A DNA stretch of 42,351 nucleotides from Escherichia phage vB_EcoM-ep3, in the sequence record NC_025430.1. One strand, given 5' to 3'. The notes under the pieces were generated by a model. That model searched no databases. It had not been told where the DNA came from and saw nothing but the letters and a program-made list of their open reading frames with translations. Below, in pieces: positions 15,716 through 31,493 of this stretch. How positions within the stretch are numbered: position 1 is the stretch's first letter; each line of letters begins with the position of its first letter. Both the position numbers and the translations under genes were made by a program.

Positions 15716-16240
15716 TTGGCTAAAACAATAAAAGGCCGAACAGTAAACCGCAGCGGCCTGGCGGAAGTTTTCGGGGTAGCACCGCCAACAGTTGACCAGT
15801 GGCGAAAAGACGGCGCGCCCTACGTAACACTTGGCGGGCGTGGTAAAGAATGGGAGTACGACACCGCGCAGGTGGCGGCCTGGTTGCGTGAACGCGATGT
15901 GAAGGCGGCCACCGGCGACGTGATGGCGGATGAAACGGAATTGAAGCGCCGCAAGCTGGCAGCCGAAACCGAAAAAGCAGAACTGGAACTGGCCAAAGCC
16001 AAAGGCGAAGTGGCACCACTGGACCAGGTTGAACGCGCCGTTGCCCGCGCCTTCGCGGAAGTGCGCGCCGGGATGCGCAACCTGCCACAGCGCACCGTTT
16101 CAATGCTTATCGGTGAAACCGATGAACGCCGGTTCAAATCGGTGATGATGGGCGAAATTGACGAAGTGCTGAAATCACTGGTGACCGCTTCCCTGCTGGA
16201 TGGCTATGACGAAGGGGGCGACGGTGACAGCGAAGAATAA
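15716..16240 (+). CDS. terminase small subunit (lambda Nu1-like)
   Basis: About 174 aa; N-terminal HTH (LAEVFGVAPPTVDQWRKDGAPY) and overall layout resemble lambda Nu1; TTG start at 15716 after AAGGCGG (start uncertain); 3' end overlaps the large-subunit gene. Confidence 0.78.
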   Translation: MAKTIKGRTVNRSGLAEVFGVAPPTVDQWRKDGAPYVTLGGRGKEWEYDTAQVAAWLRERDVKAATGDVMADETELKRRKLAAETEKAELELAKAKGEVAPLDQVERAVARAFAEVRAGMRNLPQRTVSMLIGETDERRFKSVMMGEIDEVLKSLVTASLLDGYDEGGDGDSEE

Positions 16241-18248
16241 CCCGTTTGCCAACATTGAAGGCATTGACCAGGCTATCCGGCGCGCACAACAACAATTGTT
16301 GCCGCCGCCAGACATGAAGCCGTCAGAGTGGGCGCAGGCTAATATCCGCATTCCGTCTGGCAACGCCGTGCCAGGACCGCTGCGCCTGGATAACGCGCCA
16401 TACCAGCGCGAACCAATGGACATGCTGGTTGACCCTGATTGCTACCGTGTAACGCTGATGTGGGGCGCGCAGGTGGGCAAAACCATGCTGGCACTGTGCG
16501 TGCAGGCGTACAGCGTAGCCGCTGAACCGCGCAGCCAGATGATGATGCAGCCAAGCCAGGATGACTTGCGCACCTGGCTGGAAACGAAATTCAACCCTCT
16601 GGCGGAAGAATGCGCGCCGGTAAACAACGCCATTGCCAAACCGCGTGGCCGCGACGGGGTGAACAACCAGAAAATGAAATCATACCCTGGCGGGTTCTTG
16701 ATGTTCGCCTGGTCCGGTTCGCCAAAGACCATGCGCGGGCGTTCAGCGCCGCTGATTGTATGTGACGAGGTAGACGGATATGAACGAACCAGCGAAGGGC
16801 ACCCGGTTGGCCTGCTGTGGCAGCGTTCTGCCACCTTCGGTGACCAGCGGTTTTTGCTGGAAATCAGCACCCCTACCCTTAAAGGTGAATCGTACATCGA
16901 AAAAGCGTATGAAATGGGCGACCAGCGGCACTTCTTTGTTTGCTGCCCGCACTGTGACGATCACGTTACGCTTGAATGGGAAAACGTCAAATGGGATGGC
17001 CAGCGGGAAACTGACGCGGAAACGCTGGCGGCCATCGAAGAACAGAAGCCGGAAACAGCGCACCTGTATTGCCCATCGTGCGGCGCGCAGTGGAATGACG
17101 GCGAACGGATAGCGGCTATCCGTCAGGCCGAAGAAAAGGGCGCAGGCTGGAAGGCGTCCAGGCCGTTTGAAGGGCACGCAAGCTACCACCTGAACGAACT
17201 ATACAGCACATTCCGCAAAGTACCGGCCATCGTGCGTGACTACCTGGACAAGCTGAAAACGGACGACCTGCAAACCTTCACCAACGTCAGCCTGGCGCGC
17301 ACCTGGGAAGAAGAAGGCGACAAGGTTGACCCGGATTCACTGATGGCACGCCGCGAGGAATACGCCGCGCAGGTGCCTGCTGGTGGGCTGTATATCACCG
17401 CAGGCATAGACATGCAGGTTGACCGCCTGGAATGTGAGGTGGTGGCCTGGGGCGTTGGTGAAGAATCCTGGTCATTGGGTTACCACGTCCTGTGGGGCGA
17501 CCCTCTGACGCCAGATCCGTGGGATGCGCTTGATGACCTGCTGGCGGAAACCTACCAGCACGAAACCGGCGCAGTGCTGCCGATCATGGCCGCCTGCCTG
17601 GATACCGGCGGCACCAGCGGTTACACGCAGGCCGCCTATGACTACGCCAGAGGGCGCACAGGCCGCCGCCTGTTTGCCATCAAAGGAGTGGGCGGTTGGG
17701 GTCGTCCTATCGTGGAGAAGCCGCAGCGCAAGCAATCCGGGAAGGATGCCCGCAAAGTGGATTTATTCCTGGTGGGCACCGATGAAGCCAAGCTGATAAC
17801 TGCACGCCGTTTAAACAAGACGGCACCGGGGCCAGGTTATTGCCACTTCCCTGCTGACCGCGATGAAGAATGGTTTAAGCAAATCACCGCTGAAAAGCTG
17901 ACCATGCGTTACGTGAAGGGCCAGCCAATCCGCGAGTGGAAGAAACCCGACCGGGCGCGCAACGAAGCACTGGACTGCCGCAACTATGCGCTGGCCGCGC
18001 TTAAAATCATGCAGCCGTCATTCCGCCGCCTGGCTGAAAAGTTTGGCGTAGCGAACGACAACGCGCCACCGGAACGCCGCAAGCGGCTTCCGAACGTCAA
18101 ACCCATCGTGAAACCGGTGGAAGTGCCGCAACCGGCCAATGACAAACCCCAAGAAGAAGAAAAACAGCAAGTCACAGAGACTAAGCCCATTAAACGTTCC
18201 GCCAGGGCATCCAAACGCCGTGGCGGTGGATGGGTTAGCCGCTGGTGA
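16200..18248 (+). CDS. terminase large subunit (lambda gpA-like)
   Basis: 682 aa; Walker A-like MWGAQVGKT, CPHCDDH zinc-binding-like segment; overlaps the small-subunit gene as in lambda Nu1/A. Confidence 0.9.
   Translation: MAMTKGATVTAKNNPFANIEGIDQAIRRAQQQLLPPPDMKPSEWAQANIRIPSGNAVPGPLRLDNAPYQREPMDMLVDPDCYRVTLMWGAQVGKTMLALCVQAYSVAAEPRSQMMMQPSQDDLRTWLETKFNPLAEECAPVNNAIAKPRGRDGVNNQKMKSYPGGFLMFAWSGSPKTMRGRSAPLIVCDEVDGYERTSEGHPVGLLWQRSATFGDQRFLLEISTPTLKGESYIEKAYEMGDQRHFFVCCPHCDDHVTLEWENVKWDGQRETDAETLAAIEEQKPETAHLYCPSCGAQWNDGERIAAIRQAEEKGAGWKASRPFEGHASYHLNELYSTFRKVPAIVRDYLDKLKTDDLQTFTNVSLARTWEEEGDKVDPDSLMARREEYAAQVPAGGLYITAGIDMQVDRLECEVVAWGVGEESWSLGYHVLWGDPLTPDPWDALDDLLAETYQHETGAVLPIMAACLDTGGTSGYTQAAYDYARGRTGRRLFAIKGVGGWGRPIVEKPQRKQSGKDARKVDLFLVGTDEAKLITARRLNKTAPGPGYCHFPADRDEEWFKQITAEKLTMRYVKGQPIREWKKPDRARNEALDCRNYALAALKIMQPSFRRLAEKFGVANDNAPPERRKRLPNVKPIVKPVEVPQPANDKPQEEEKQQVTETKPIKRSARASKRRGGGWVSRW
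18141..18157 (+). repeat. 17-bp motif GACAAACCCCAAGAAGA, copy 1
   Basis: Exact copy inside the terminase 3' end, in frame encoding DKPQEE; 114 bp upstream of the GTG start at 18255. Confidence 0.9.
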
Positions 18249-18254
18249 TAAATA

Positions 18255-18794
18255 GTGAAAAACTGCCAAGTACCGCAGAAAATTACTGCTGGATTGACAT
18301 TTGAGACGCGCCTGACGCTTCCCGGCTATCCTGCAACTGAATGGGCTGTTCAGCTACTGCTGCGCGGCCCGCAGTCAATTAACATCAACGCCGTCGCTGA
18401 TGGTAACGATCACGTCATCCGCGCAGCCGCTGGCGTCACTGCAACGTGGCCAGCAGGCGATTACTGGTATTCGCTGCGCGCGACCAAAGGCGATGACGTT
18501 ATGGAGGCCGGAAACGGCCAGATTACCATCCTGCCAGACCTGGCCAGCGCCAGTGATGGATTTAACGGGAAAACTCACGCGCAACGCACCCTGGAAGCCA
18601 TTGAAGCGGTCATAGAGAAGCGCGCGACAATGGACCAGGAACGCTACCGCATCAATAACCGCGAGTTATATCGCACCCCGATTGCGGATTTGCTGAAACT
18701 GCGCGACTTGTACCGCCTGGAAGTAGCACGCGAAAAACAGGCGCAGTGCGGCAAAAACCCGTTCGGGCGTAAAGTTCGGGTGAGCCTTCGCTGA
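18255..18794 (+). CDS. putative head-tail joining protein (gpW-like C-terminal region, N-terminal extension)
   Basis: 179 aa; GTG start with GGTGA RBS; sits between terminase and portal where lambda gpW lies; C-terminal segment loosely gpW-like. Confidence 0.4.
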   Translation: MKNCQVPQKITAGLTFETRLTLPGYPATEWAVQLLLRGPQSININAVADGNDHVIRAAAGVTATWPAGDYWYSLRATKGDDVMEAGNGQITILPDLASASDGFNGKTHAQRTLEAIEAVIEKRATMDQERYRINNRELYRTPIADLLKLRDLYRLEVAREKQAQCGKNPFGRKVRVSLR

Positions 18795-20350
18795 TGAAAC
18801 TGTGGCCATTTACCAGAAACAAGCCTGCCGAACAGGCACAACAGCCGCGCACGCGGCGTTTACCGCTTAACCGCCTGGCGTCCCGTATGTTTACCGGTGC
18901 CAGTGTTGACCGTTTTGGCACCGCGTGGGGTACACAGCCGCTGACGGCTGATGAAGTCATTACCAAAAATCAACGCATCCTGGTGGCCCGTTCCCGCGAA
19001 CAGGCCGCCAACAATGATTATGCCAAAAAGTTCCTGCGTCTGTGCCGCACAAACATTGTGGGGCCAAAAGGCGTTCTGTTGCAGGCAAAAAGCCAGGATA
19101 ACACCGGAAAACTGGACACCCTGGCGAATGAAGCCATTGAACTGGCGTTTGACGCATGGGGCAAAAAGACCAACTGTGACGTGACCGGTAAGTTGTCCTG
19201 GCGCGCCATCCAGGCCGCCTGCGTCAACAGCGTGGCCAAAGACGGTGAATTCTTCGTGCGCCTGGTGTTTGGGGCTGACGCAGGGCCGTGGGGCTTCTCG
19301 CTGCAACTGCTGGACCCGCAACGCTGTCCTGTGGACATGGTTGAAGATCGACTGCCAAACGGAAATTTCATCCGCCAGGGAATCGAGTTTAACCGATACG
19401 GGCGGCCTATCGCGTATTATTTCAGCACAGTTGATGAATCGGATGAAAACTACCGTTGGGCTGGGCGTGACTTCGTGCGCGTGCCTGCGGATGAAATCCT
19501 GCACGGTTTCTTTGATGACATGGTGGGCCAGAAACGCGGCCTGCCCTGGATGGCCACCAGCCTGTTTCGTATGCGCCACCTGGGCGGCATGGAAGAAGCC
19601 GCACTGGTCAACGCGCGAGCAGGTGCCAACAAAATGGGGTTCATCGAATGGGATGAAAACGGCGCTGGACCTGAATTCGACGATGAAGACGAACTGATCA
19701 TTGACAGTGAACCGGGTGAATTCCAGGTGCTGCCACAGGGCGCACGCATCAAAGACTGGTCACCGCAATACCCCAACGGCGAATTTGCCGTGTTCACCAA
19801 ACAGATGCTGCGCGGCATGGCTTCTGGCATGGGCGTGGCTTACAACAACCTGGCCAACGACCTGGAAGGCGTCAATTTCAGTTCCATCCGACAGGGCACG
19901 CTTGACGAGCGCGAAAGCTGGAAGGAATTGCAGGAATGGCTAATCGAAAACCTGCACCAGCCTGTTTTTGACGCCTGGCTGCCGCGCGCCCTGCTGTCTG
20001 GACGCATCACGGTGAAAGGCCGCAGCCTGAAACCGGAACGCATAGACCGTTACAGCAATATTGAATGGCAGCCACGCCGTTGGGCCTGGATTGACCCGTC
20101 ATCTGACGTGGAAGCGGCTGAAAAATCAAAAAACAACATGCTGCAATCGCCTGGCCGCATCATCCGTGAAGGTGGCAGCGACCCTGACACCGTTTGGAAG
20201 GAAACCGCTAGCGACGTGGCACGCATGATTGAGGCGTACACGCAGCACGGTATCAGCCGAGAAATGGCGGAAAAACTGGTCATGCAAAGCATGGGCATGG
20301 ACAAAACACTGTTAATGGGGCAGCAAAATGCAGAAAAACCTGCTGAATAG
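18794..20350 (+). CDS. portal protein (lambda gpB-type)
   Basis: 518 aa, directly after the terminase/gpW-like genes; size and position match lambda-type portals. Confidence 0.88.
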   Translation: MKLWPFTRNKPAEQAQQPRTRRLPLNRLASRMFTGASVDRFGTAWGTQPLTADEVITKNQRILVARSREQAANNDYAKKFLRLCRTNIVGPKGVLLQAKSQDNTGKLDTLANEAIELAFDAWGKKTNCDVTGKLSWRAIQAACVNSVAKDGEFFVRLVFGADAGPWGFSLQLLDPQRCPVDMVEDRLPNGNFIRQGIEFNRYGRPIAYYFSTVDESDENYRWAGRDFVRVPADEILHGFFDDMVGQKRGLPWMATSLFRMRHLGGMEEAALVNARAGANKMGFIEWDENGAGPEFDDEDELIIDSEPGEFQVLPQGARIKDWSPQYPNGEFAVFTKQMLRGMASGMGVAYNNLANDLEGVNFSSIRQGTLDERESWKELQEWLIENLHQPVFDAWLPRALLSGRITVKGRSLKPERIDRYSNIEWQPRRWAWIDPSSDVEAAEKSKNNMLQSPGRIIREGGSDPDTVWKETASDVARMIEAYTQHGISREMAEKLVMQSMGMDKTLLMGQQNAEKPAE

Positions 20351-22376
20351 CATCATTGGGGCCGAATTTACCCGCAAATCAGACAGCAAAACGCTGCCTG
20401 ATTTCAACAAAGGCGGGCTGGTGCGCACTATGGAAGTGCGCAAGTTTGACACCGAAAAACGCACCGTAGAACTGGCGTTTTCCTCCGAAATCGAGGTTGA
20501 ACGCTGGTACGGTATCGAAATTCTGGACCATTCGCCGGAAAGCGTGCGCCTGGACCGTCTGCGTGACGGTGGGGCGCTGCTGGTTGACCACGATTGGACT
20601 GACCAGGTGGGCGTTGTTGAATCCGTCAGCATTGACGCTGACCGCCGGGGGCGGGCTGTGGTGCGCTTTGGCCGAAGTGCACGCGCTGACGAGATTTTCC
20701 AGGACATCGTTGACGGCATTCGCAAGCATGTTTCCGTTGGCTACCGCGTGTTAGCGGCCAAGCTACAGGAAACGCGTGACGAGTGGCAGGATGTCTACCG
20801 CATCACTGAATGGGAACCGTTCGAAATTTCAATTGTGAGCGTTCCCGCTGACACCAGCGTTGGCATTGGGCGTGCGTTTGACAAACCCCAAGAAGAACAA
20901 CGCGGCATCAAATCCGATACTGCGGGCACCGTAGAGGTTCCAGCACCAAAAAAATCATTTGAGGATTCACGAATGTTAGAAAAAATTCTGCGCGACGCTG
21001 CCGGTAACCTGGTGCGCGCGATGGTAGACGAGAAAGGCAACATCACGCAGGTTCTGGAAATGCTGGAACGTGCTGGCGATGATGCGCGCAACGCTGAACA
21101 GCGTGGCCGTGAAGCGGAAAAGGCGCGCGTGCGTTCCATCACTGAAATGGGCGAGAAGTACAACGCACGTGACCTGGCTTTGAAAGCTATTGGCGAAGGC
21201 ACCACCGCCGAAGATTTCCAGCGTTCCTTGCTGGACCACCTGAACAAGCCGAAAGACCCGGCACAACCGGCTGATGACACCCGTTCCGGCAGCAAGCCGC
21301 TGTCAGAAATGCCGTCCAGCGTGATTGGTATGTCTGACAAAGACATCCGCCGCTATAGCATTTTCAACGTGGTTCGCGCGCTGGCTAACCCGAACGATGC
21401 AGCCGCACAGCGTGCCGCAGCGTTTGAAATCGAATGCAGCCACGCAGCGCAACAGCAGTATGGCCGCAGTGCAAAAGGCATCCTGATCCCTGACGATGTT
21501 CTGCGCGCATTCAACGCTGGTGGCGCACCGAACACCCCGACAGGTGCACAGACCGGTTCCAACCTGGTTGGCACTGACTTTATGGCCAGTTCGTTCATCG
21601 ACCTGCTGCGCCCGCGTACCACCATCATGCGCCTGGCGCGTACTATGGGCGGCCTGGTTGGCAACGTTGAAATTCCGAAACAGACTGGCGGCGCTACTGC
21701 CTACTGGATTGGTGAAGGTGATGACGCAACCGAAACCACGCCGACCATCGGCCAGCTTAGTTTGTCACCGAAAACCGTTGCGGCTTACACCGACATTACC
21801 CGCCGCCTGCTGATGCAATCCACCCCGGATGCGGAAGCTATCGTGCGCGGTGACCTGGTGGCAGCTATCGCGCAGGCGATTGATTACGCTGGCTACTACG
21901 GCACCGGCACCAGCAACCAGCCGCTGGGTCTGGCGAACTACACCGGCATTAATGCGGTAGACTTCGCAGCAGCCAACCCGACTTATGCGGAACTGGTGCA
22001 GATGGAAACCGAAATCGCGGCTGACAACGCTGACGTGAACAACATGGCATATGTGCTGAACGCGCGTGGCCGTGGTGCAGCGAAAACCACGCCGAAGTTT
22101 GCCAGTGGTTCTTCCGTGGCTGACGCTGGCGTGATTTGGGAACCGGGCAACACCCTGAACGGTTACCGCGCCGAAGTTACCAACCAGGTTCAGGATGGTG
22201 ACGTGTTCTTTGGCAACTTCGCTGACTTGGTTGTTGGTATGTGGGGCGGCCTGGACATGACGGTTGACCCGTATAGCCTGAGCAAATCCGGTGGCCTGCG
22301 CATCGTGGTATTCCAGGACGTGGATTTTGCGGTGCGCCGCGTTGAATCCTTCTGCCTGGGCCGCAACGCAGCATAA
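20328..22376 (+). CDS. prohead protease-scaffold-major capsid fusion protein (HK97-fold)
   Basis: 682 aa; N-terminal about 200 aa prohead-protease-like, central charged coiled-coil, C-terminal about 350 aa HK97-like major capsid region; internal in-frame ATG at 20973 with GAGGA RBS. Confidence 0.85.
   Translation: MQKNLLNSIIGAEFTRKSDSKTLPDFNKGGLVRTMEVRKFDTEKRTVELAFSSEIEVERWYGIEILDHSPESVRLDRLRDGGALLVDHDWTDQVGVVESVSIDADRRGRAVVRFGRSARADEIFQDIVDGIRKHVSVGYRVLAAKLQETRDEWQDVYRITEWEPFEISIVSVPADTSVGIGRAFDKPQEEQRGIKSDTAGTVEVPAPKKSFEDSRMLEKILRDAAGNLVRAMVDEKGNITQVLEMLERAGDDARNAEQRGREAEKARVRSITEMGEKYNARDLALKAIGEGTTAEDFQRSLLDHLNKPKDPAQPADDTRSGSKPLSEMPSSVIGMSDKDIRRYSIFNVVRALANPNDAAAQRAAAFEIECSHAAQQQYGRSAKGILIPDDVLRAFNAGGAPNTPTGAQTGSNLVGTDFMASSFIDLLRPRTTIMRLARTMGGLVGNVEIPKQTGGATAYWIGEGDDATETTPTIGQLSLSPKTVAAYTDITRRLLMQSTPDAEAIVRGDLVAAIAQAIDYAGYYGTGTSNQPLGLANYTGINAVDFAAANPTYAELVQMETEIAADNADVNNMAYVLNARGRGAAKTTPKFASGSSVADAGVIWEPGNTLNGYRAEVTNQVQDGDVFFGNFADLVVGMWGGLDMTVDPYSLSKSGGLRIVVFQDVDFAVRRVESFCLGRNAA
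20880..20896 (+). repeat. 17-bp motif GACAAACCCCAAGAAGA, copy 2
   Basis: Exact copy inside the capsid fusion ORF, same reading frame (DKPQEE); 93 bp upstream of the internal start at 20973. Confidence 0.9.
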
Positions 22377-22382
22377 TGAACA

Positions 22383-22402
22383 TGGCCGCTTCGGCGGCCA
22401 TA
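22383..22402 (+). terminator. stem-loop after the capsid gene (weak terminator/stabiliser)
   Basis: 8-bp stem ATGGCCGC-TTCG-GCGGCCAT just after the capsid stop; no clean T-run. Confidence 0.35.
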
Positions 22403-22427
22403 GTCTTATCTGACAGGAGAAGTTTTT

Positions 22428-22730
22428 ATGTCTGGTACTTATGTACTGAAATTGACTTCCGCTATTGCTATCAGCGGCGAAGTCATGAAAGCGGGTTCAC
22501 TGGTTGAGGTTTCAGAGCTTGAGGCTAAAAACCTGTTGTCGCGCGGCAAGGCAGAGATGCACGACGAACAACCAGCACGTGATGACGATGTTGAAATCAC
22601 GAAAATGAACAAAGATCAGCTTATCGCTATTGCAGAGCAGATGGAAATTGAAGGCGCTGACAAGATGACCAAAGCGCAGTTGATTGAAGCCATCGAAGCC
22701 GCAGGCGAAATCAAAGAGGGTGACGAATAA
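22428..22730 (+). CDS. hypothetical head-associated protein
   Basis: 100 aa; strong AGGAGA RBS; acidic with a C-terminal helical motif (KMNKDQLIAIAEQMEIEGADKMTKAQLIEAIEA). Confidence 0.5.
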   Translation: MSGTYVLKLTSAIAISGEVMKAGSLVEVSELEAKNLLSRGKAEMHDEQPARDDDVEITKMNKDQLIAIAEQMEIEGADKMTKAQLIEAIEAAGEIKEGDE

Positions 22731-23086
22731 TGCAACACGGCACATCTGTAACGGTTCTGGCCGCACCAGCAACAATCACAGCCAGCGGCAACGGTTCAGC
22801 CGTCAACGTTGGTGATTATCATGGCCTGTGCCTGCTTCACCTTAACGGCATCGGCACTGCTGGCACCACCACTGTAAGCCTGCAACACAGTGATGACGGT
22901 TCAACCAATTGGGCTGACGTACCCAACACCACTTTTGCGCAGATCAGCACCGCAGCTAAGGCTGACACGATCCTGTTTAATGCTGACCGATTCAAAAAAT
23001 TTGTCCGCGTGAAGGATGTTTCAGCCAGTTCCGGTTCGGCAATCCGCAGCGTTGTGCTGGTTGGCAATAAGCGGGAATCACAGTAA
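22730..23086 (+). CDS. hypothetical virion protein
   Basis: 118 aa; translationally coupled to the upstream gene; Thr/Ser/Gly-rich. Confidence 0.45.
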   Translation: MQHGTSVTVLAAPATITASGNGSAVNVGDYHGLCLLHLNGIGTAGTTTVSLQHSDDGSTNWADVPNTTFAQISTAAKADTILFNADRFKKFVRVKDVSASSGSAIRSVVLVGNKRESQ

Positions 23087-23418
23087 TGCCCGCGCCGTCC
23101 TGGGAAAACCTGGACGACTTTTTTGACCTTGACACCAACGGCGGGTTTGCATTTCCCGCCGTTATTCATTCGCAAAAAGGTTGGACCAGAACAATTAACG
23201 CCATCTTTGATGACCCCTACTTCAACGCGCAAATAGGCGAGTATGAAGCGGACACCAGCAGCCCGCGAATCACGGCAAAGGAATCTGACCTGGCTGGCAT
23301 CCTGCGTGGTGACACAATCATTGTGGCCGGTGAAACCTTCGATGTGCTGGCATCCCCTGAACAGGATGGCACAGGCACTGCCGTTGTGAGGATGACGCGC
23401 CAAGATGCTGCATTTTGA
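23086..23418 (+). CDS. putative head-tail connector protein
   Basis: 110 aa; ATGA coupling; between capsid and baseplate genes; function assigned by position only. Confidence 0.4.
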   Translation: MPAPSWENLDDFFDLDTNGGFAFPAVIHSQKGWTRTINAIFDDPYFNAQIGEYEADTSSPRITAKESDLAGILRGDTIIVAGETFDVLASPEQDGTGTAVVRMTRQDAAF

Positions 23419-23959
23419 CCTGGATTGGCAACAACTGCGCGGCGTGGCTACTGAACTGGAAGCCAGTGAAAAGCAGTTCAAAGCCGCATTAAGCCGCGCT
23501 TGCAACCGCACGGCGGCCACCCTGCGCAAAATGTCTGGCCGTGGCCTGAAAGATGAACTGCAACTGCGCACGATGGCGGCTATGCGCAAGCGCCTAAAAT
23601 CCATCAGGCTGCGCACGCGCCAACAGGGCGTTGTGTTGTGGTACGGCTTAAATGATTTGCCGGTGAGTAGCTTTAAGGGCCGCGCCAAGCAGACCAGCGA
23701 CGGTGCCACGTTCCGTGACCAGAAGTTTGACGGCGCATTTGTGGGCCGCAGCACGGTGAAAGGCAAACGTACAGTGTTTAAACGCGCTGGAAAAGCACGC
23801 CTGCCCATCACTGAACAGTTGATGCCCATTAAGGACAAAGCCGAAATTTTCATTGAAGATGAAATATTCACGCAGGTTGAAGAAATATTCTGGAAGCACT
23901 TCGAACGCGATATTAAAGCGCGCGTCAAATACTTTGAAACATCCGACAGGTGGGCATAA
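23405..23959 (+). CDS. putative neck/virion morphogenesis protein
   Basis: 184 aa; overlaps both neighbours; assigned by position. Confidence 0.4.
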   Translation: MLHFDLDWQQLRGVATELEASEKQFKAALSRACNRTAATLRKMSGRGLKDELQLRTMAAMRKRLKSIRLRTRQQGVVLWYGLNDLPVSSFKGRAKQTSDGATFRDQKFDGAFVGRSTVKGKRTVFKRAGKARLPITEQLMPIKDKAEIFIEDEIFTQVEEIFWKHFERDIKARVKYFETSDRWA

Positions 23960-24528
23960 TGAACGCCGATACTCACATTGATTTAGAAGTGCTGCACAGC
24001 GCCATTGTGGCCGACATCAAAGCAGCATTCCCGCAACTGGTCACCGTGGAGTTTTACCAGGATGACCCGGAAGCGCGCAAAACGCTGCCAATTCCCGCCT
24101 GCCTGCTGACCATCAGCGAACTGGAGGCAGACAACGAGATTGACCCCGGCACGGAACAGTTGGCCGTTGTGGCGACGTTTGAGGCGCATTTCATCATTAA
24201 CAGCATCAGGACACCCCGCGCCGCCCTGGCCATCAGGACGCTGGCCGCTGCCTTCATGGCCTGGCTGCGCAAGCGCCGCTGGACCAACCCGGCAGACCCC
24301 GCCAGGAAGCTGCCCACAGGGACAGCCAACGTGGTTGGCGGCTTCCCTGACGACTTCACCCCGGAACTGGACAAATTCGAGGTGTGGCGCGTGGAGTGGC
24401 AGCAAGTCATCCACCTGGGCGAAAGCGTGTGGAACGATGAAGGCATAACCCCATCAGAGGTTTATTTCAGTTGGTTGCCTGAAATTGGCACCGGCAACGA
24501 AGAAGATTACGAGAAGGTGAACCCATGA
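23950..24528 (+). CDS. putative tail-completion/virion protein
   Basis: 192 aa; overlaps both neighbours; assigned by position. Confidence 0.4.
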   Translation: MGIMNADTHIDLEVLHSAIVADIKAAFPQLVTVEFYQDDPEARKTLPIPACLLTISELEADNEIDPGTEQLAVVATFEAHFIINSIRTPRAALAIRTLAAAFMAWLRKRRWTNPADPARKLPTGTANVVGGFPDDFTPELDKFEVWRVEWQQVIHLGESVWNDEGITPSEVYFSWLPEIGTGNEEDYEKVNP

Positions 24529-25178
24529 TCGCAGAAGTTAGCGAACTGAACCGCCAGCTAAACAACGTTGTGCGCATCGGCACCATCAAACAACTGGACC
24601 TGGCCAACGCGCGTGCTAAAGTTTCCGTTGCTGGCTGCACCACTGACTGGCTGCCCTGGGGAACCAACCGTGCCGGGAAGCGCCGCGACTGGTCACCGCC
24701 TGTCATCGGCGAACAGGTAGTTTTGTTTGCGCCTTACGGCGACTTAGGCCAGGCAGTCATTGGGCCGTCAATCTTCCAGGATGACCACGCGGCACCAGCG
24801 GCAAGCGCGGACCAGGAAACAACCGTTTACCCTGACGGCACAACGGTGGACTACAACAGCGCAAGCAACACGCTGACCATCACCGTGGCTGGTGCAGGTA
24901 ATGTCATCATTAACTGCAAACAGGCCAACGTGAACACTGAAACGGCCACCGTGACGGCATCAACAAGCGTCACTCTGGACACGCCTGACACGTTTTGCAC
25001 CGGCAACCTGACCGTGGCCAAAAGTTTCCAGATGGGAAGCGAAGGCGGAACGGCTACGATGACTGGTAACGTGGCGATTGAAGGCGGAAGCCTGACACAC
25101 AACGGCAAAAACATTGGCAGCAACCATGCTCACAGCGGCGTGCAGTCTGGTGGCAGCAACACCGGCGCACCGGTGTGA
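24525..25178 (+). CDS. baseplate assembly protein V (spike, P2 gpV-like)
   Basis: 217 aa; N-terminal VRIGTIKQLDLANARAKV and central CTTDWLPW...VIGEQVVLF match my recollection of P2 gpV; C-terminal Gly-rich HSG..GG.TG tail. Confidence 0.88.
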   Translation: MIAEVSELNRQLNNVVRIGTIKQLDLANARAKVSVAGCTTDWLPWGTNRAGKRRDWSPPVIGEQVVLFAPYGDLGQAVIGPSIFQDDHAAPAASADQETTVYPDGTTVDYNSASNTLTITVAGAGNVIINCKQANVNTETATVTASTSVTLDTPDTFCTGNLTVAKSFQMGSEGGTATMTGNVAIEGGSLTHNGKNIGSNHAHSGVQSGGSNTGAPV

Positions 25179-25181
25179 CCT

Positions 25182-25198
25182 GACAAACCCCAAGAAGA
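25182..25198 (+). repeat. 17-bp motif GACAAACCCCAAGAAGA, copy 3
   Basis: Exact copy in the intergenic gap 3 nt after the gpV stop and in gpV's frame; followed by hairpin ATGCGGGC-ATCATT-GCCCGCAT (25211-25232) that holds the gpW start; 49 bp upstream of gpW. Confidence 0.9.
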
Positions 25199-25231
25199 TA
25201 AACCATCACCCATGCGGGCATCATTGCCCGC

Positions 25232-25570
25232 ATGAAAGGAACAAACGCGGCCACAGGCGCGCCGCTGGATGGTTTAGACCATCTGCGCCAATCCATAAGA
25301 GACATACTCACGACGCCAATTGGCACGCGAGTGATGCGCCGCGACTACGGCAGCCGGTTGCCCTACCTGGTTGATGCACCGATGAACCGCAGCACGCTGC
25401 TGGACCTGTACGCAGCGACTGCGGAAGCACTGGAAGCCTGGGAACCACGCATCAGCGTGCAGCAGGTGACAGCAACATCAGCAGAACCAGGACGCGTGGA
25501 ATTGTCCATTACCGGCGAATACCTGCCAGACGGCAAACAAATAACAATTGACGGCATAGTGGTGACATAA
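25232..25570 (+). CDS. baseplate assembly protein W (P2 gpW-like)
   Basis: 112 aa; LDHLRQSIRDILTTPIGTRVMRRDYGS closely follows the P2 gpW pattern as I recall it. Confidence 0.88.
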   Translation: MKGTNAATGAPLDGLDHLRQSIRDILTTPIGTRVMRRDYGSRLPYLVDAPMNRSTLLDLYAATAEALEAWEPRISVQQVTATSAEPGRVELSITGEYLPDGKQITIDGIVVT

Positions 25571-26473
25571 ATGGCGGGTGCCTTCACAGTTGTAAACTTA
25601 TCTCAATTACCAGCGCCAAACGTTGTTGTGCCGCTGGACTTTGAAACGATTCTGGCGGCCATGATCGCCGATTTGCAGGATCGTGACCCCACATTCACCG
25701 CATTGGTGGAATCTGACCCCGCTTATAAAATCCTGGAGGTCTGCGCTTACCGGGAGTTACTGCTGCGTCAGCGAGTTAATGAAGCGGCCAAAGCAGTTAT
25801 GCTGGCTTACGCGTCTGGTGCAGATCTTGACCAGTTAGGCGCGAACGTTGGTGTTAAGCGCCAGGTGATTACGCCTGCTGATGACACAACTGTGCCGCCA
25901 ACACCTGCAGAAATGGAATCAGATGAAGATTTCCGCGCGCGTATTCAGTTGTCACCGGAAGGCTACACAACAGCGGGTTCAGAAGGCAGTTATGTGTTCC
26001 ACGGATTGGGTGCTGACGCTGACGTGAAAGACATCCAGGCCATAAGCCCGGAGCCAGGAAAAGTCACCGTTTACGTGCTGTCACGCACCGGCGACGGCAC
26101 CGCACCTGCTGAAACCATTACTGCGGTTGCCAACACCCTAAACGGCGAAACCATCAGGCCAATGACCGATGAAGTCACAGTGCTGTCAGCAAACATCGTG
26201 AGTTACACCATTAATGCTGAACTAACGCTGTTCCCTGGCCCTGACTCCACTGTGGTTCTCCAGTCTGCCATTGATGCCGTAACAGCGTTTGCAGAATCTC
26301 AGCGCCGCATTGGCTATGATGTCACGCTGTCTGGTCTGTATCACGCATTGCATCAGCCTGGCGTGCAGAACGTCAACCTGACCAGCCCAACAGCATCACT
26401 GGTGCTTGGCGATGGTCAGGCCAGCTATTGCACAGCAATCAATGTAACCGTGGCGGGTGATACTGATGTCTGA
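25571..26473 (+). CDS. baseplate assembly protein J (P2 gpJ-like)
   Basis: 300 aa; position after W and before I; baseplate-J-like composition. Confidence 0.85.
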   Translation: MAGAFTVVNLSQLPAPNVVVPLDFETILAAMIADLQDRDPTFTALVESDPAYKILEVCAYRELLLRQRVNEAAKAVMLAYASGADLDQLGANVGVKRQVITPADDTTVPPTPAEMESDEDFRARIQLSPEGYTTAGSEGSYVFHGLGADADVKDIQAISPEPGKVTVYVLSRTGDGTAPAETITAVANTLNGETIRPMTDEVTVLSANIVSYTINAELTLFPGPDSTVVLQSAIDAVTAFAESQRRIGYDVTLSGLYHALHQPGVQNVNLTSPTASLVLGDGQASYCTAINVTVAGDTDV

Positions 26474-27059
26474 CTTATTGCCATATAATTCAACAGAACA
26501 GGAACGCGCACTGGCTGAAACAATAGCCAGGATTAGTGACGTTCCGGTTGTCGTGCGTGAAGTCTGGAACCCTGACACATGCCCATCAAGCGTTCTGCCC
26601 TGGCTGGCTTGGGCGTTCAGCGTTGACGATTGGGATACTACCTGGTCAGACGAGCAGAAACGCAAGGTAATTAAAGAGTCGGTTTATTCGCAGCGCATAA
26701 AAGGCACTATCGGGGCTGTTACGCGTCAGCTTGTTGCTTTGGGCTACCAGATTCAGATCCTTGAGTGGTTTAAACAAAGCCCGATTGGCCAGCCGTACAC
26801 ATTTGATGTTTACATTACTGCTAATCAATATCCGTTAACTCAAGAAGATTTTAAAAAAATACTACAAGTGATTGACACTAACAAAAACCTGCGTTCGCAC
26901 CTGGATGAAACGCAGTTGATTGTTAAGTCAGAAAGTAAAACGACTGCTGCCATTGTCTGTGGCACAGGAAATGAAATTAGTCTGACGAACTACACCAGAT
27001 TTGTTGGTGCTTTGAATGACTATGTTATGGTGCAACCAAATATATCTATAGGTGCTTAA
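26466..27059 (+). CDS. tail protein I (P2 gpI-like)
   Basis: Trimmed to ATG 26466 (MSDLLPYN); VREVWNPDTCPSSVLPWLAWAFSVDDWD nearly matches the P2 gpI motif as I recall it. Confidence 0.88.
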   Translation: MSDLLPYNSTEQERALAETIARISDVPVVVREVWNPDTCPSSVLPWLAWAFSVDDWDTTWSDEQKRKVIKESVYSQRIKGTIGAVTRQLVALGYQIQILEWFKQSPIGQPYTFDVYITANQYPLTQEDFKKILQVIDTNKNLRSHLDETQLIVKSESKTTAAIVCGTGNEISLTNYTRFVGALNDYVMVQPNISIGA

Positions 27060-29303
27060 GTGGAACTGAAAACATACTTCGCCCAAGACAGAAACGGAAA
27101 CCTTATTCCATCTGCTACAGTGTCAATTTTTTTGTCTGGCACATCAACCTTAGCCACAGGATTAAAGACCGTTAGCGGCGCTAATCTTACCAATCCTTTC
27201 ACCGCAGGTTCTGACGGTAAAATACAGTTTTACGCTCCAGACGGAATTTATGACATGCAGGTATCACTAGGCAGCGTTGACGGAGTTAAAGTTACGTTTC
27301 AATGTATCGATGTTCAACAGCAACTTAGCGAAGCAAGCAGCGCCGCAGATCGCGCAGAGGCTGCGGCTGAATCCATAGAATCGCAGTCCGCTAACATCGA
27401 ATCAAACAGCCGTGAACAATGGCGCAGATCGCTGGCAGATGCAGGAATAACGCTTGTTAACGGTAGCTTTGAGGCGGGGGCGACAGTCAGTAACGCTTCT
27501 GAAGCTGTCTGGCATATTGCTGGTGGTCAGTGCTACACCTGGGGCGGAGTGATGCCGAAAGTAGTAACAGAAGGTTCAACACCTTCCGAAACAGGTGGCG
27601 TTTCCCCTGGAGCCTGGACTAGCGTTGGTAATAAATCCTTTAGCCAAATCCTGGCATCAAACAAGGGAATGAATCTAATCGGTGACGTTGATTCTGTAGC
27701 TCAGTTAGCATCTGTTTCTGGCGCATCTGTTGGCGATAAGATACTTGTCAGATCATACATCGCCGGTTCTAATAAAGGTGGTGGCACATTTGTTGCAGTT
27801 GAAAACACTGAAACGCCTGATGGCGTGGTAGTATTTGACGGCGTAGGTGTTAAATGGCGGAGACTTTTCTTTGCTGGTGAGGTAAATGTATTTGACGCCG
27901 GATATACGGGAAGCGGCGACATTGCTGTTTACATCAATAAAGTGAATTCCGCAGGATACGATTGTTTTATTCCATGTTCCGGTGCGTTTTCTTCCGCAAT
28001 AGAAATTGATTTCAGCAAAGGAAGTGTAAGAGGCGCAAACAAATGCACACTTACAGAAATTGAAGGAATTCCAGGTGATTATGCGTTGAAGCTTTTCAAC
28101 TCAAACACCGATTATGCTGACCGAGATTCAATTAACGCAAACGCCATATTGGATGGGGTCGCATTTCAGTTTTCTGGAACAAAAAAAATTGCGCTTGGCG
28201 GAGCGGGAACGGGTGAACTATCTGAATTGCGGATAAGTAACTTTGGTTTCATATCTTCTGCTGGATTAGAGTTTCTTGACAACTCTTACCGGATTATTTT
28301 CGATAAAGGCGCTATTTCACGCAGCTTTAATGACACACTCATATTTAATTCACCTGCGAACTCAGGAGAAGTGATTAACTTCAATCATTGCTGGATGGTA
28401 GACAATGGCGGGCCATTAAAATTCAAAAATGGGCAGTTTATATTTAATGGTTGCTCAATGCCTGCCGGGAAGAAGGCAGGATATTTTGACCCAAACATAA
28501 TATTGGAGGACAACGCAACAGTTGTTTACGCAAATGGCAACATTGAATTTCAACCAGGTCAAAGTTTTGTTGCATTTGTGGTTGGCGGCAGTTCCAGATT
28601 GAGTATTAAAGATTCAACGCTGCTAACTCCATCTGGATATTCAGCTATACCAATCGTTGCAAATGATGATGCGGTCGTCTCGCTAACAAACTGTTCGCTT
28701 CCTCTATATGAGCAAACAGAGATTGCCGCTGGTGCTGCTGCGCGTCAAATTATTGGTGGGAACAGTAAGAAAGTAATGTCTTATGGTTGTTATCCCAGGG
28801 CTGGTTTTATAACAGCAAATTGGGATAAAGGTAACATTGTTAGTGCTTACATAAACTCATTGTCGAATGGCAGTGGACAATTTTTAAACTATTCAAACTG
28901 GAGTTTAATGCAAACCGGAAGCGGTGTTGTTACGGCAGGTACTGATACTGACGTACCAAATACAATCATGTTTTCAAGATCGCTATACGTAACTGTCCCT
29001 TCCGTTGGTGCGACAGCAGATTTCTACCAAGACTGCCTTGACTGTTCACCTGGCCGCTATTTTCAACTTGGGTTTTGGGCAAAGAACGCTGTGACATCAC
29101 TGGCATCAATTGAATTCTTTGATAAAGAGGGCAACAGCGTTCAAGGGAAAATACCTTTTAATATACCTTCTGTGAATGCTTGGGGATTCTATGCGCTCGT
29201 AGACATTGTTCCGCCTGGTGCAAGTAAAGCAAGGGTTAACTTTGCAGTTTCTGGTGAAGTAGGTACACTGCATATTCATAACGCTATTTATGGCTTGATT
29301 TAA
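27060..29303 (+). CDS. tailspike-like receptor-binding protein (possible depolymerase)
   Basis: 747 aa; GTG start; markedly AT-rich; Gly/Ser/Asn/Thr-rich repetitive composition suggestive of beta-helix tailspikes; inserted between gpI and the gpH-like fibre. Confidence 0.6.
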   Translation: MELKTYFAQDRNGNLIPSATVSIFLSGTSTLATGLKTVSGANLTNPFTAGSDGKIQFYAPDGIYDMQVSLGSVDGVKVTFQCIDVQQQLSEASSAADRAEAAAESIESQSANIESNSREQWRRSLADAGITLVNGSFEAGATVSNASEAVWHIAGGQCYTWGGVMPKVVTEGSTPSETGGVSPGAWTSVGNKSFSQILASNKGMNLIGDVDSVAQLASVSGASVGDKILVRSYIAGSNKGGGTFVAVENTETPDGVVVFDGVGVKWRRLFFAGEVNVFDAGYTGSGDIAVYINKVNSAGYDCFIPCSGAFSSAIEIDFSKGSVRGANKCTLTEIEGIPGDYALKLFNSNTDYADRDSINANAILDGVAFQFSGTKKIALGGAGTGELSELRISNFGFISSAGLEFLDNSYRIIFDKGAISRSFNDTLIFNSPANSGEVINFNHCWMVDNGGPLKFKNGQFIFNGCSMPAGKKAGYFDPNIILEDNATVVYANGNIEFQPGQSFVAFVVGGSSRLSIKDSTLLTPSGYSAIPIVANDDAVVSLTNCSLPLYEQTEIAAGAAARQIIGGNSKKVMSYGCYPRAGFITANWDKGNIVSAYINSLSNGSGQFLNYSNWSLMQTGSGVVTAGTDTDVPNTIMFSRSLYVTVPSVGATADFYQDCLDCSPGRYFQLGFWAKNAVTSLASIEFFDKEGNSVQGKIPFNIPSVNAWGFYALVDIVPPGASKARVNFAVSGEVGTLHIHNAIYGLI

Positions 29304-29310
29304 CAAACAA

Positions 29311-29326
29311 CCCCACTTCGGTGGGG
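29311..29326 (+). terminator. weak terminator-like hairpin
   Basis: CCCCAC-TTCG-GTGGGG, 8 nt after the tailspike stop; followed by AT-rich sequence rather than a clean T-run. Confidence 0.35.
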
Positions 29327-29356
29327 TAGCAAATTTTAAAATTGAGGCCAAACACA

Positions 29357-30694
29357 ATGCCATTTCTTACAATTCATACTAACTATGGTCTGCAAAAGCT
29401 TGCGCAGGCTGAATCAACAGGAACGCAAATCCGGTTGACGCATATGGCAGTTGGCGACGGCAACGGAAATGCTGCGCCGCCTAATCCAAATCAGACGCAG
29501 TTGGTGCGTGAACGTTTCCGCGCAACCATCAACCGCGTTTATCAGGATGCAAATAACCCGCTGCGCTTCACTGCTGAATTGGTTATCCCGGCCAGCGTTG
29601 GTGGTTTTACTATGCGTGAGGTTGGTGTTTTTGACGCTGATGGTTCTCTGTTTGCTGTTGGCGATCTTCCATCTACTTACAAGCCGGTTGATACAGAAGG
29701 TGCCTACTCTGACACGGTTGTGCGGCTTGACTTCATGGTAAGCAACGCCAGCACTATCACCCTACAAGTTGACCCAAATGTTGTGGTTGTCACACAGCAG
29801 TGGATTTCTAACAACGTGACAGCAGGAACCATCATCCCTGGTGGCACAACCGGGCAGGTTCTTGCAAAGCAGTCAAACGCTGACGGTGACGTCCATTGGG
29901 TTGACCCTACACAAGCAAACGTTGTGGTTGATACCATCACCGAAAAACAAACATTGGCAGCCAACCAGACTGTAGTGATGCTGACAACAACCATAACACG
30001 CGGACTGGCGGTGTATATCGAAGGCATCAGGCTGCCGCAAGGTTCTGGTGTTGATGAGTGGCAGCCTGATGCAACTGACTCGTCGAAATTTACACTTGGG
30101 AAGCCTTACCCAGATGGGTCGATTTTGCAGGCTGTGAACAATGAACCAGCAGGAAGCGCACCTGCTCCACTGGAAAGAAGTAAAAACCTTTCAGATGTTG
30201 CAAGTAAATCCGAGTCACGGAGCAACCTTGAAGTTTACAGCAAAACGGAAACTGACCAAAAGATGCCGACAGGTGGAATTGTTTATTTTCCACGCTCTAC
30301 GGCACCGACAGGATGGTTGAAAGCCAATGGGGCTGCGATCAGTAGAACGGCTTATGCAAATCTTTTTTCTGTAATAGGAACAATGTTTGGCAATGGTGAC
30401 GGTGTTAACACGTTCAATTTGCCAGATCTGCGCGGAGAATTCATCAGAGGATATGATGACGGTAGAGGTGTAGACGCTTCACGGTCACTAGGTAGCTATC
30501 AGGCCGATGAAATAAAAACCCACTATCACAGATTGGGGAGTGAATTTGTAGCAAACGGAGCCGAAAACCTTATTGCTGACGCCTGGGACCAGGGCACTAG
30601 CGGCAATTATCCAGAAGGAATTGGCACTGGATACACAGGCGGTACAGAAACCAGACCGCGAAACATCGCTCTACTGGCGTGCATCAAATTTTGA
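29357..30694 (+). CDS. tail fibre protein (P2 gpH-like N-terminus, tail-collar C-terminal domain)
   Basis: Trimmed to ATG 29357 (MPFLTIHTNYG); N-terminus HMAVGDGNGN...AELVIPASVGGFTMREVGVFD follows the P2 H N-terminal domain; C-terminus carries the tail-collar motif NTFNLPDLRGEFIRG. Confidence 0.85.
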   Translation: MPFLTIHTNYGLQKLAQAESTGTQIRLTHMAVGDGNGNAAPPNPNQTQLVRERFRATINRVYQDANNPLRFTAELVIPASVGGFTMREVGVFDADGSLFAVGDLPSTYKPVDTEGAYSDTVVRLDFMVSNASTITLQVDPNVVVVTQQWISNNVTAGTIIPGGTTGQVLAKQSNADGDVHWVDPTQANVVVDTITEKQTLAANQTVVMLTTTITRGLAVYIEGIRLPQGSGVDEWQPDATDSSKFTLGKPYPDGSILQAVNNEPAGSAPAPLERSKNLSDVASKSESRSNLEVYSKTETDQKMPTGGIVYFPRSTAPTGWLKANGAAISRTAYANLFSVIGTMFGNGDGVNTFNLPDLRGEFIRGYDDGRGVDASRSLGSYQADEIKTHYHRLGSEFVANGAENLIADAWDQGTSGNYPEGIGTGYTGGTETRPRNIALLACIKF

Positions 30695-30702
30695 GGCGAA
30701 TC

Positions 30703-31008
30703 ATGAAGACAAAACCCGTTTATCAATATGACGTCGCTGGCCTTTTTGTTGGCCAGACAGATGCTGATGAATCACCTCTTGAACCTGGTGTTTTTCTAAT
30801 TCCTGCACGCTGCGTAGAGGTGGCACCCCCTGAATTTTCAGGTGACCAATGGCCACGCTGGAACGGCGCAAAGTGGGAACTGATTAGCGTATCGCCAGCT
30901 AACGATAACCAACCGGCAAGCCCGGTTGATAAACTGCGAGAATTCCTGAACGCAAACCCTGACGTGGCCGCGCTGATTGGCGCAACGAATGAGGCAACCA
31001 ATGTATGA
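30703..31008 (+). CDS. putative tail fibre assembly chaperone
   Basis: 101 aa; GAGG RBS; VEVAPPEFSGDQWPRWNGAKWEL resembles the N-terminal domain pattern of Tfa-type chaperones; directly follows the fibre gene. Confidence 0.5.
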   Translation: MKTKPVYQYDVAGLFVGQTDADESPLEPGVFLIPARCVEVAPPEFSGDQWPRWNGAKWELISVSPANDNQPASPVDKLREFLNANPDVAALIGATNEATNV

Positions 31009-31367
31009 GCGAAGTCTTAAGGGGCATCACTAACAAAAACCTTGCAGCGCAAGGATACCAGGAATTACCTGGCGGCATGATTATTCAGTGGGGTAGTTTC
31101 ACCAGCACCGTTACATCTGGTGCAGGCACAACCGATACACGTATGTACCAGGGCACGCAGAGTGTCACGTTTCCAAAACCGTTCCCTACGGCTGTGGTAA
31201 GCATTCAGGCTACGCCAAGAGACAACGAAAACATTATTCTTGAATATGCCAATATCAGTGGTCGGACGCTAACCACATTTTCAAGCATTCTTGGCGGCGT
31301 CCAGAACGAAGGAACGGTGCCAGGAACCACAACACTAACCGTTGACTGGTTCGCTATCGGTTATTGA
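31005..31367 (+). CDS. hypothetical tail-fibre-associated protein
   Basis: 120 aa; ATGA coupling; Thr/Gly-rich; followed by a strong terminator. Confidence 0.45.
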   Translation: MSEVLRGITNKNLAAQGYQELPGGMIIQWGSFTSTVTSGAGTTDTRMYQGTQSVTFPKPFPTAVVSIQATPRDNENIILEYANISGRTLTTFSSILGGVQNEGTVPGTTTLTVDWFAIGY

Positions 31368-31379
31368 TTTGTCGCCTTT

Positions 31380-31401
31380 GCCCGCTTCGGCGGGCTTTTT
31401 T
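31380..31401 (+). terminator. intrinsic terminator
   Basis: GCCCGC-TTCG-GCGGGC hairpin followed by TTTTTT. Confidence 0.8.
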
Positions 31402-31404
31402 ACG

Positions 31405-31421
31405 GACAAACCCCAAGAAGA
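31405..31421 (+). repeat. 17-bp motif GACAAACCCCAAGAAGA, copy 4
   Basis: Exact copy 4 nt after the terminator T-run, intergenic; 89 bp upstream of the tail sheath start; followed by inverted repeat ACTGTG..CACAGT (31456-31469). Confidence 0.9.
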
Positions 31422-31493
31422 AGCCACGCACGGTTCCTGCGACCATCACACTGCGAATTTTCACTGTGTGCACAGTTAATAGGAAACCGAATA

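Follow-up and report, generated by a model that had tools for sequence, protein, structure and literature searches.

A repeated 19-nucleotide box as the candidate activator site of five putative late promoters in Escherichia phage vB_EcoM-ep3 and its relatives

Escherichia phage vB_EcoM-ep3 (ep3; sequence record NC_025430.1) carries in its late region a 17-bp sequence, GACAAACCCCAAGAAGA, which recurs upstream of structural genes. Analysis of the whole stretch of 42,351 nucleotides (nt), here called the window, together with related genomes, suggests with a probability of roughly 0.8 that this sequence is the upstream, activator-binding half of five late promoters, which would be read by a helix-turn-helix (HTH) activator of the phage itself. 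This reading is well supported by the fixed spacing between the box and a downstream hexamer, by the family-wide conservation of the arrangement, and by the concerted change of the box beside a Mor/C-like HTH protein. A first-pass annotation made from the letters alone had offered three roles for the repeat without choosing among them; that of a late promoter or activator site has held up, whereas those of an RNA element and a recombination boundary have not.

Architecture and conservation of the repeated unit

Exact copies of GACAAACCCCAAGAAGA are present on the + strand only, at 18141, 20880, 25182 and 31405. The first-pass annotation had judged this recurrence to be beyond chance, and a mismatch scan bears it out, as five matches with up to three mismatches were found against 0.10 expected, and none of 100 shuffled sequences reached five. 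The fifth match, GACAAACCCCACAAAGA at 13868 (two mismatches), had been missed, as had the -10 element described below. It lies inside the 3' end of the open reading frame (ORF) 13508-13942, within its last 25 codons and about 80 nt upstream of the holin start at 13947. Repeat analysis lengthened the conserved unit by one base at each end, to the 19 nt of TGACAAACCCCAAGAAGAA.

Two of the exact copies are coding and, as had been proposed, both translate as DKPQEE at the terminase C-terminus and at the protease-scaffold junction. The copy at 18141 corresponds to codon 647 of the 682-amino-acid (aa) terminase, whose last Pfam domain (the nuclease) ends at residue 606, and the copy at 20880 to codon 184 of a 682-aa fusion of Peptidase_S78 (residues 84-176) and Phage_capsid (410-678), just past the protease domain. 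The other two are intergenic, again in agreement with the earlier placement; that at 25182 begins 4 nt past the gpV stop codon (25176-25178), and that at 31405 is located directly 3' of a terminator hairpin (31380-31395) and its T-run. Each of the four precedes a start codon, at measured distances of 50-114 nt that match the 49-114 bp given before: 114 nt to GTG 18255, 93 nt to the in-frame ATG 20973, 50 nt to ATG 25232 and 89 nt to ATG 31494. Alignment of the five copies with 80-nt flanks revealed no common sequence outside the box, and no structure common to these flanks was found.

The full unit consists of the 19-nt box, an unconserved, T-poor and GC-rich spacer of 18 nt, and a -10-like hexamer of the form nAnA(A/C)T. 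Five such units, termed PL1 to PL5, are present on the + strand. PL1 (13867-13909, 28.0 bits in the position-weight matrix introduced below) comprises the box TGACAAACCCCACAAAGAC at 13867-13885 and AACACT at 13904-13909, while PL2 (18140-18182, 34.5 bits), in the C-terminal tail of the terminase, has the box TGACAAACCCCAAGAAGAA at 18140-18158 and GAGACT at 18177-18182. PL3 (20879-20921, 33.2 bits) lies inside the capsid fusion gene 20328-22376, with its box at 20879-20897 and GATACT at 20916-20921. PL4 (25181-25224, 24.3 bits), between gpV and gpW, combines the box TGACAAACCCCAAGAAGAT at 25181-25199 with CATCAT at 25219-25224 across a spacer of 19 nt, a length also found at this site in the enterobacterial relatives. 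PL5 (31404-31446, 32.4 bits) has the box GGACAAACCCCAAGAAGAA at 31404-31422 and GACCAT at 31441-31446.

The matrix was built from box and hexamer, leaving out the degenerate fifth sites of two relatives, Arya and KA2-1. In the window it detects these five sites only, at 24-34 bits, and the next best match reaches 14. Two sites that the first-pass annotation had listed as relatives of the motif, at 10541 and 40522, share with it the common 8-mer GACAAACC only; they score far below the five and were rejected as members of the family.

Conservation was assessed in nine genomes, namely the ep3-type E. coli group, MQ-4, Arya, KA2-1, PPpW-3, Persinger, Mano, Mica and FoX5. When the box is numbered 1-19 and the hexamer region 38-43, the information content of 43 sites is confined to positions 1-19, 39, 41, 42 and 43. 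Position 39 is A in 40 of the 43 sites and position 41 is A in 34, position 42 is A or C in all, and position 43 is T in 40, while the spacer is unconserved and almost devoid of T. Positions 39 (A) and 43 (T) correspond to the two best-conserved positions of the sigma-70 -10 hexamer. A -35 hexamer is missing, since nothing like TTGACA is found 17 nt 5' of the ep3 hexamers, and across the sites positions 15-20 read AAGAAG or AGGAAC. Nor is 13000-32900 rich in sigma-70-type promoters, with 9 matches against 13.8 expected. The TGACA at the 5' end of the box was considered as a -35 element and rejected, because it lies 32 nt from the -10.

These phages are Jilinvirus/Iiscvirinae myoviruses and their kin, a type that the BASEL paper termed poorly characterised. 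The late region of ep3 is 98% identical to that of Escherichia phage vB_EcoM_ECOO78, 92-93% to those of ECO1230-10, Alux-21, HeidiAbel (Bas97) and Salmonella PT1, and about 80% to those of Enterobacter phage Arya and Klebsiella KA2-1; farther relatives infect Serratia, Pseudomonas, Achromobacter, Burkholderia and Xanthomonas. In the annotated records the late activator gene is followed by holins, endolysin and spanin, the small and large terminase, head-tail joining and portal genes, the protease-capsid fusion, head and tail completion genes, baseplate V, W, J and I with the fibres, and finally sheath, tube, tape measure and the rest of the tail. The mosaic part of the late region, in comparison with Bas97, ECO1230-10 and Arya, is the tail-fibre and depolymerase module at 26685-31369, beyond which homology picks up at the fibre-gene stop, just 5' of the terminator and PL5.

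A search of related genomes for the motif near late genes had been proposed, with its absence there as the refuting outcome; instead, the units occur at the same five places. Close E. coli relatives have the same box at these places, and de novo k-mer searches recovered a genome-specific box there in every relative examined, including eight more distant ones with hosts from Enterobacter to Xanthomonas, each with five units on the late-gene strand. The places are the 3' end of the activator gene before the holin, the C-terminal tail of the terminase, the protease/scaffold junction of the capsid gene, the interval between gpV and gpW, and the position after a terminator and before the sheath gene, where the terminator-then-box order is kept in all nine genomes. 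The box reads TGACAAACCCCAAGAAGAA in the E. coli group, TGACAAACCCAAAGAAGAA in MQ-4, TGACACCCCGCACGAAGAA in all copies of Arya, TGACAAGCCGCACGAAGAA in KA2-1, GGCAAACCCACAAGAGGAA in PPpW-3, GGAAATCCCACAAGAGGAA in Persinger, GGAAAAnCCGCAAGAGGAA in Mano, GGAAATCCCACGGGAGGAA in Mica and GGAAATTCCGGACATGGAA in FoX5. In Mano the hexamers found 18 nt past the boxes are AACAAT, CAGAAT, GAAAAT, GAAAAT and GACAAT. The matrix finds exactly five sites in each relative, on the late-gene strand only. PL1 is the most divergent copy in every genome; its orthologous site exists in all nine and is degenerate in Arya (40135) and KA2-1 (41847), where it is the best remaining matrix match at the expected place, out of sample.

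Within a genome, the boxes of non-homologous sites are 94% identical, against 67% for the same site between genomes, while the corresponding values for the 18-nt spacer are 32% and 40%. Copies that are alike within a genome and different between genomes are expected if one shared, phage-specific reader recognizes them all. Furthermore, the three coding copies are in an identical reading frame throughout, and the peptides they encode vary with the box (DKPQEE, DTPHEE, DKPKEE, EIPQEE, ENPQEE, EIPREE, EIPDME). Because these peptides change with the box and two further copies are non-coding, selection acts on the DNA, which upholds the earlier view that the nucleotides and not the peptide are selected. 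The (D/E)xPQEE peptide common to the activator, the terminase and the capsid fusion is thereby imposed by the box. Similarly, an A-N-D-N peptide near the C-terminus of the activator is encoded by the -10 region of PL1 (for example GAT AAC AAT; 13886-13930 in the window, and in orthologues), and the conservation of both peptides is due to the DNA signal. The remark that the gpV frame runs on past its UGA is correct in that an open frame of 18 codons exists, but it is not conserved: the gpV stop is TGA, TAA or TAG in the relatives and the frame relation is kept in four of nine genomes, and read-through of the UGA was rejected on these grounds.

Near-identity of the copies within a genome could also be expected of recombination or module-boundary sequences, or of sites for a ParB-like or packaging protein, kept alike by gene conversion, and one copy does border the variable tail-fibre module. 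Such an origin is extremely improbable. Gene conversion would even out the flanks too, yet the spacers are only 32% identical, and neither the strict orientation nor the linked -10 would be expected. The sole mosaic module relative to Bas97 (about 26685-31369) has one edge near a box, whereas its left edge has none, and at the right edge homology resumes at the fibre-gene stop and terminator and not at the box. For a ParB-like binder, a separate palindromic repeat is the better candidate.

The candidate activator and its variants

The most likely reader of the box, judging by gene context and homology, is the product of ORF 13508-13942 on the + strand, a putative late transcriptional activator of 144 aa whose HTH (residues 90-119) is C-terminal. 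Its gene is located directly 5' of the lysis genes, as is C in phage Mu, and its orthologues are annotated as 'late transcriptional activator' in relatives. Against phrog_836, a 'late transcriptional activator' profile, the protein scores 1.1e-30; the linker and HTH of Mu Mor (1.2e-10) and of Mu C (2.1e-11) are matched by this profile as well. The Pfam Mor family (PF08765), which Mu Mor and C match at about 1e-33, is matched by five of the nine orthologues (best 6.4e-8), and the depositors' record of Mano reports an HHpred match to Mor (1RR7). The ep3 protein itself has weak, HTH-only Pfam matches. An AlphaFold2 (AF2) model has a predicted local distance difference test score (pLDDT) of 80; Foldseek returned no match to it below E 0.1, and a sequence search of the PDB with the family profile yielded generic HTH proteins only and no Mor. 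On these comparisons the protein is concluded to be a putative distant relative of Mor and C with a different N-terminal half. It would bind the box and recruit host sigma-70 RNA polymerase, as Mu C does at Plys, PI, PP and Pmom, and the box would span about -49 to -31, with its centre near -40, if +1 is placed 7 nt past the -10.

The same protein might instead be a sigma-like or region-4-replacing specificity factor, in which case its '-35' would be the near-invariant GA(G/A)GAA at the 3' end of the box, 17-18 nt from the -10. This is unlikely, since all sigma matches fall below Pfam thresholds and cover the generic HTH only, the protein has no region 2 with which to read a -10, and the hexamer resembles a sigma-70 element. 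Moreover, matches to Pfam Mor as good as 6e-8 are found among the orthologues, and the PHROG profile of the family is matched by Mu Mor and C.

Metagenomic relatives also bear on the proposed promoters. A search with the activator alignment collected 80 viral-contig loci, in which the matrix (cut-off of at least 16 bits) has 147 matches on the strand of the activator and late genes and none on the opposite strand. The usual layout has one site in the 3' end of the activator gene, the next about 4-6 kb downstream and another about 2.8 kb further. At least 20 box variants are present in these contigs; their 3' part, GA(G/A)GAA, is nearly constant, while the 5' part differs, in step with the recognition helix that the activator homologue carries. 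Thus SERTVKRH is found with TGACAA, SDRHVRN with GGAAA(T/A), SRETVNA with GCAGAA, TEQHVRF with GAAGAA, and SLRRVYRV with TGACA(C/G)CCCGCACATGG. Helix residues 112, 113 and 117 rank high in the mutual information between activator columns and box positions (56 proteins). The activators of phages with the five conserved sites are only 38-63% identical.

Several observations weigh against the proposed activator and its mode of recognition. The ep3 protein itself has no PF08765 match at E<=1, and hhalign of the nine-sequence family alignment against Mor and C gave a probability of 1.8% (E 0.028), with both alignments too shallow. The mutual information owes most of its signal to columns of high entropy and to residues 120-128, encoded by the PL1 box itself, and is not decisive, and the co-variation of helix and box is confounded by phylogeny. 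In addition, the recognition helix SERTVKRHC is common to ep3 and Arya although their boxes have different centres, and specificity must therefore depend on more than this helix. The ep3 box also lacks dyad symmetry, whereas C and Mor sites are imperfect dyads; nine box variants gave at best 1-4 pairs, no better than shuffles (P>=0.2), in a test of low power, given that Mu Plys itself scores 4 of 9. Lastly, 18 nt separate the box from the -10, compared with about 24 nt at Mu Plys, and the Mu sites are about 3-6 bp further from the -10 than the box is, with +1 placed 7 nt past the -10. ep3 and Arya also differ in the FGGE-x-L-x-P-x-x-C linker N-terminal to the HTH, and that linker is a second DNA-binding region in Mor and C (PMC2582627).

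A tentative and rather doubtful extension is that Mor-like regulation has a separate branch in these phages, built on an asymmetric promoter of two parts. A fast-evolving recognition helix would read the variable 5' half of the box, and a conserved surface of the activator or remodelled polymerase would read the near-invariant GA(G/A)GAA at -35. If true, the family would contain dozens of activator/promoter pairs that are naturally orthogonal to one another. The variants found with different helices, at least 20 in number, could supply orthogonal pairs and a natural data set on HTH specificity.

Some contigs depart from the usual layout. A few have an extra matrix match 7-9 kb 5' of the activator gene on the same strand (L020:3436, L042:943, L050:2008, L055:690, L059:744, and L087:2224 and 2518), which may be a sixth activator-dependent promoter in those phages. 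In one lineage (L066-L085) the activator homologues (about 10001-10240) keep the N-terminal half and the FGGE..P..C linker, have no HTH, and end in a C-terminus with an AT-hook-like KGGRPKKN; these contigs nonetheless retain matrix sites in the usual positions, GGAAAACCCACACGTGGAA and AGAAAACCCCGCCGTGGAA being examples of their boxes.

Upstream of the activator gene, the non-coding stretch 13160-13470, which follows a terminator at 13141-13157, contains at least eight GTCACC/GGTGAC (GGTSACC) hexamers, that is, 8 of the 56 in the window within 0.7% of its length. A sigma-70-like promoter, TGGTCA-17-TACAAT (13441-13469), overlaps the last of them, and KA2-1 has ACTTGGTCACC four times at the matching place. 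The array is probably an operator or iteron array controlling the late switch, or an origin.

Predicted late transcription units

The five promoters would divide the late genes into five units. PL1 would drive lysis and terminase genes (holin, endolysin, spanin, terminase), and the C-terminal tail of the activator may be encoded by its own first target promoter. PL2 would serve the head-tail joining gene (GTG 18255), the portal and the protease, PL3 a nested scaffold-capsid protein with the head and tail completion genes, PL4 the baseplate and fibres, and PL5 the sheath (ATG 31494), tube, tape measure and remaining tail genes. An intrinsic terminator at 31380-31401 on the + strand (GCCCGCTTCGGCGGGC followed by the T-run) would end the baseplate and fibre unit just 5' of PL5.

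The internal scaffold-capsid start named in the first-pass annotation proved correct. Past PL3, a Shine-Dalgarno sequence, GAGGA (20961-20965), precedes the in-frame internal ATG 20973 (together 20961-20975, + strand), from which a 467-aa scaffold-capsid protein without the protease domain would be made. An in-frame ATG with a Shine-Dalgarno-like sequence is present 37-58 nt past the PL3 -10 in all nine genomes, and the N-terminus that it opens is conserved as M(x)EKILRDAxGN. A nested, protease-less product would fit the much larger demand for capsid subunits.

At PL4, the gpW ATG lies 7 nt past the -10 in ep3 and 6-8 nt past it in all nine genomes, without a Shine-Dalgarno sequence, and no ribosome-binding site is annotated for the gpW gene of Mano. 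A transcript that starts at or next to the A of this AUG would be leaderless, which is the likely state of the gpW mRNA. A predicted hairpin at 25211-25234 on the + strand, CATGCGGGCA-TCAT-TGCCCGCATG, has most of the -10 within the loop, and the gpW ATG 25232 forms the end of the 3' arm. Its predicted energy in ep3 is -20.3 kcal/mol; MQ-4 (-23.8), Mano (-25.8), PPpW-3 (-30.2) and Mica (-19.5) have comparable hairpins with changed base pairs, and the hairpin is weak in Arya and KA2-1. On read-through RNA the start codon would be sequestered by this hairpin, and gpW may be translated only from the leaderless transcript.

The positions of these units also bear on two explanations that do without initiation by an activator at the box. 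According to the first, box and hexamer would be loading sites for a Q-like antiterminator on polymerase that had started upstream, with the hexamer acting as a sigma-dependent pause signal. The lambda Q engagement sites do pair a DNA element with a nearby -10-like sequence, an anatomy that the box/-10 pair matches, and three of the five sites lie inside genes of a possible single long operon. Such a role is nevertheless very unlikely, as lambda-type engagement is promoter-proximal and not 4-17 kb into an operon, PL5 directly past a strong terminator would still need a source of transcripts, the gpW ATG is situated where +1 would fall, and no Q-like protein is among the annotations.

According to the second, the motif would function at the RNA level 5' of late cistrons, be it as an ARN site for Hfq, as a processing site or as an enhancer of translation. 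All copies are on the coding strand 5' of starts, and the E. coli variant holds AAG-AAG-AA. This A-R-N tract, however, is lost in Mica (CGGGAGGAA) and FoX5 (GGACATGGAA), the distance to the start codon varies (50-114 nt) while that to the hexamer is fixed, and the flanks are without common sequence or structure. The 5' half of the box, moreover, follows a DNA-binding helix, and transcripts from the predicted promoters would exclude the box, which lies upstream of +1. An RNA function is thus exceedingly improbable, and initiation at five activator-dependent promoters remains the preferred reading.

Two further repeats of the window deserve mention beside the late units. The palindrome AACAAT(C/G)ATTGTT occurs at about ten places (1468, 4738, 14969, 16288, 19010, 23313, 33461, 37339, 38720 and 39277) in early and late regions, coding and non-coding, with 18 strand-matches against 1.6 expected (up to two mismatches). 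Its core, ACAATCATTGT, is also present in relatives in 4-6 copies, and it may be the site of a dimeric binder such as the ParB-like protein encoded at 39365-40240. At the window ends, 2-34 and 42319-42351, a 33-nt sequence, AAA(A/G)AAAA(C/A)CCCGCCATAACGGCGGG(T/G)TG(A/G)TTA, recurs with 88% identity and forms a terminator-like hairpin on the - strand; this may be a trace of how a circular or integrated genome was cut to give the window.

Significance and comparison with known promoter systems

The five late units would constitute the first transcription map for Iiscvirinae/Jilinvirus-type phages. No description of these promoters was found in the literature on ECO1230-10, PPpW-3, ECOO78, Arya, Mica, FoX, Murka, BASEL and Jilinvirus; the original genome papers of ECO1230-10, ep3 and PPpW-3 were outside that scope, so an earlier mention is possible. 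The internal promoter would explain an excess of capsid protein without protease, and the map includes a probable leaderless baseplate gene. It also suggests that essential genes can conceal promoters in their linkers and tails, through which unrelated proteins come to share the peptide (D/E)xPQEE, and this calls for caution in annotation and evolutionary analysis.

The arrangement resembles that of T7-like phages in its many near-identical, strand-specific copies of 17-23 bp, which vary between phages and co-evolve with a phage reader. It differs in having a separate sigma-70-type -10 at a fixed distance and a box that excludes the start site, and no single-subunit RNA polymerase gene is present in the window or in annotated relatives, the largest early ORF (8135-10444) being annotated as DNA primase. 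With the P2/186 group, whose activators Ogr, Delta and B are zinc-finger proteins, the ep3-type phages share P2-type tail genes, several late operons, a small phage activator and the use of host polymerase. The late sites of the P2 type are built as TGT-N12-ACA dyads with a centre near -55; neither the box nor its upstream flank, which is unconserved, contains one, and the putative ep3 activator is an HTH protein, unlike Ogr and Delta.

The closest resemblance in the layout is to Mu. In both, one conserved stretch of about 19 bp recurs at several late operons (PMC2582627), with a recognizable -10 and no -35; the activator site overlaps the -35 region in Mu and would do so in ep3 with +1 placed 7 nt past the -10. 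The four late promoters of Mu have -10 hexamers and no typical -35, and C recognizes a 16-bp imperfect dyad centred at -43.5, for which a 19-bp region from -52 to -34 is needed (PMC2582627). A cryo-electron microscopy preprint describes Mor and C tetramers that contact the C-terminal domain of the polymerase alpha subunit, sigma region 4 and the beta flap (10.1101/2025.05.02.651988). Like Mor and C, the putative ep3 activator is a protein of about 140 aa with a C-terminal HTH after a GG-x3-(Y/L)-x-P linker; unlike them, it belongs to PHROG 836 and not 532 and has a different N-terminal half. The activator gene immediately precedes the lysis genes and the first late promoter in both systems, and in Mu the interval between C and the lysis gene directly 3' of it contains a terminator, a TTAT...ATAA element and the hexamer TAGACT. 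The C sites of Mu vary from promoter to promoter (PMC4461284), whereas the copies within an ep3-type genome are nearly identical, and three of the five ep3-type promoters, in contrast to those of Mu, are inside coding sequence. To conclude, the regulation proposed here for ep3 appears to be of a familiar phage kind, and its variant features would be the asymmetric box, the intragenic promoters and the leaderless gene.

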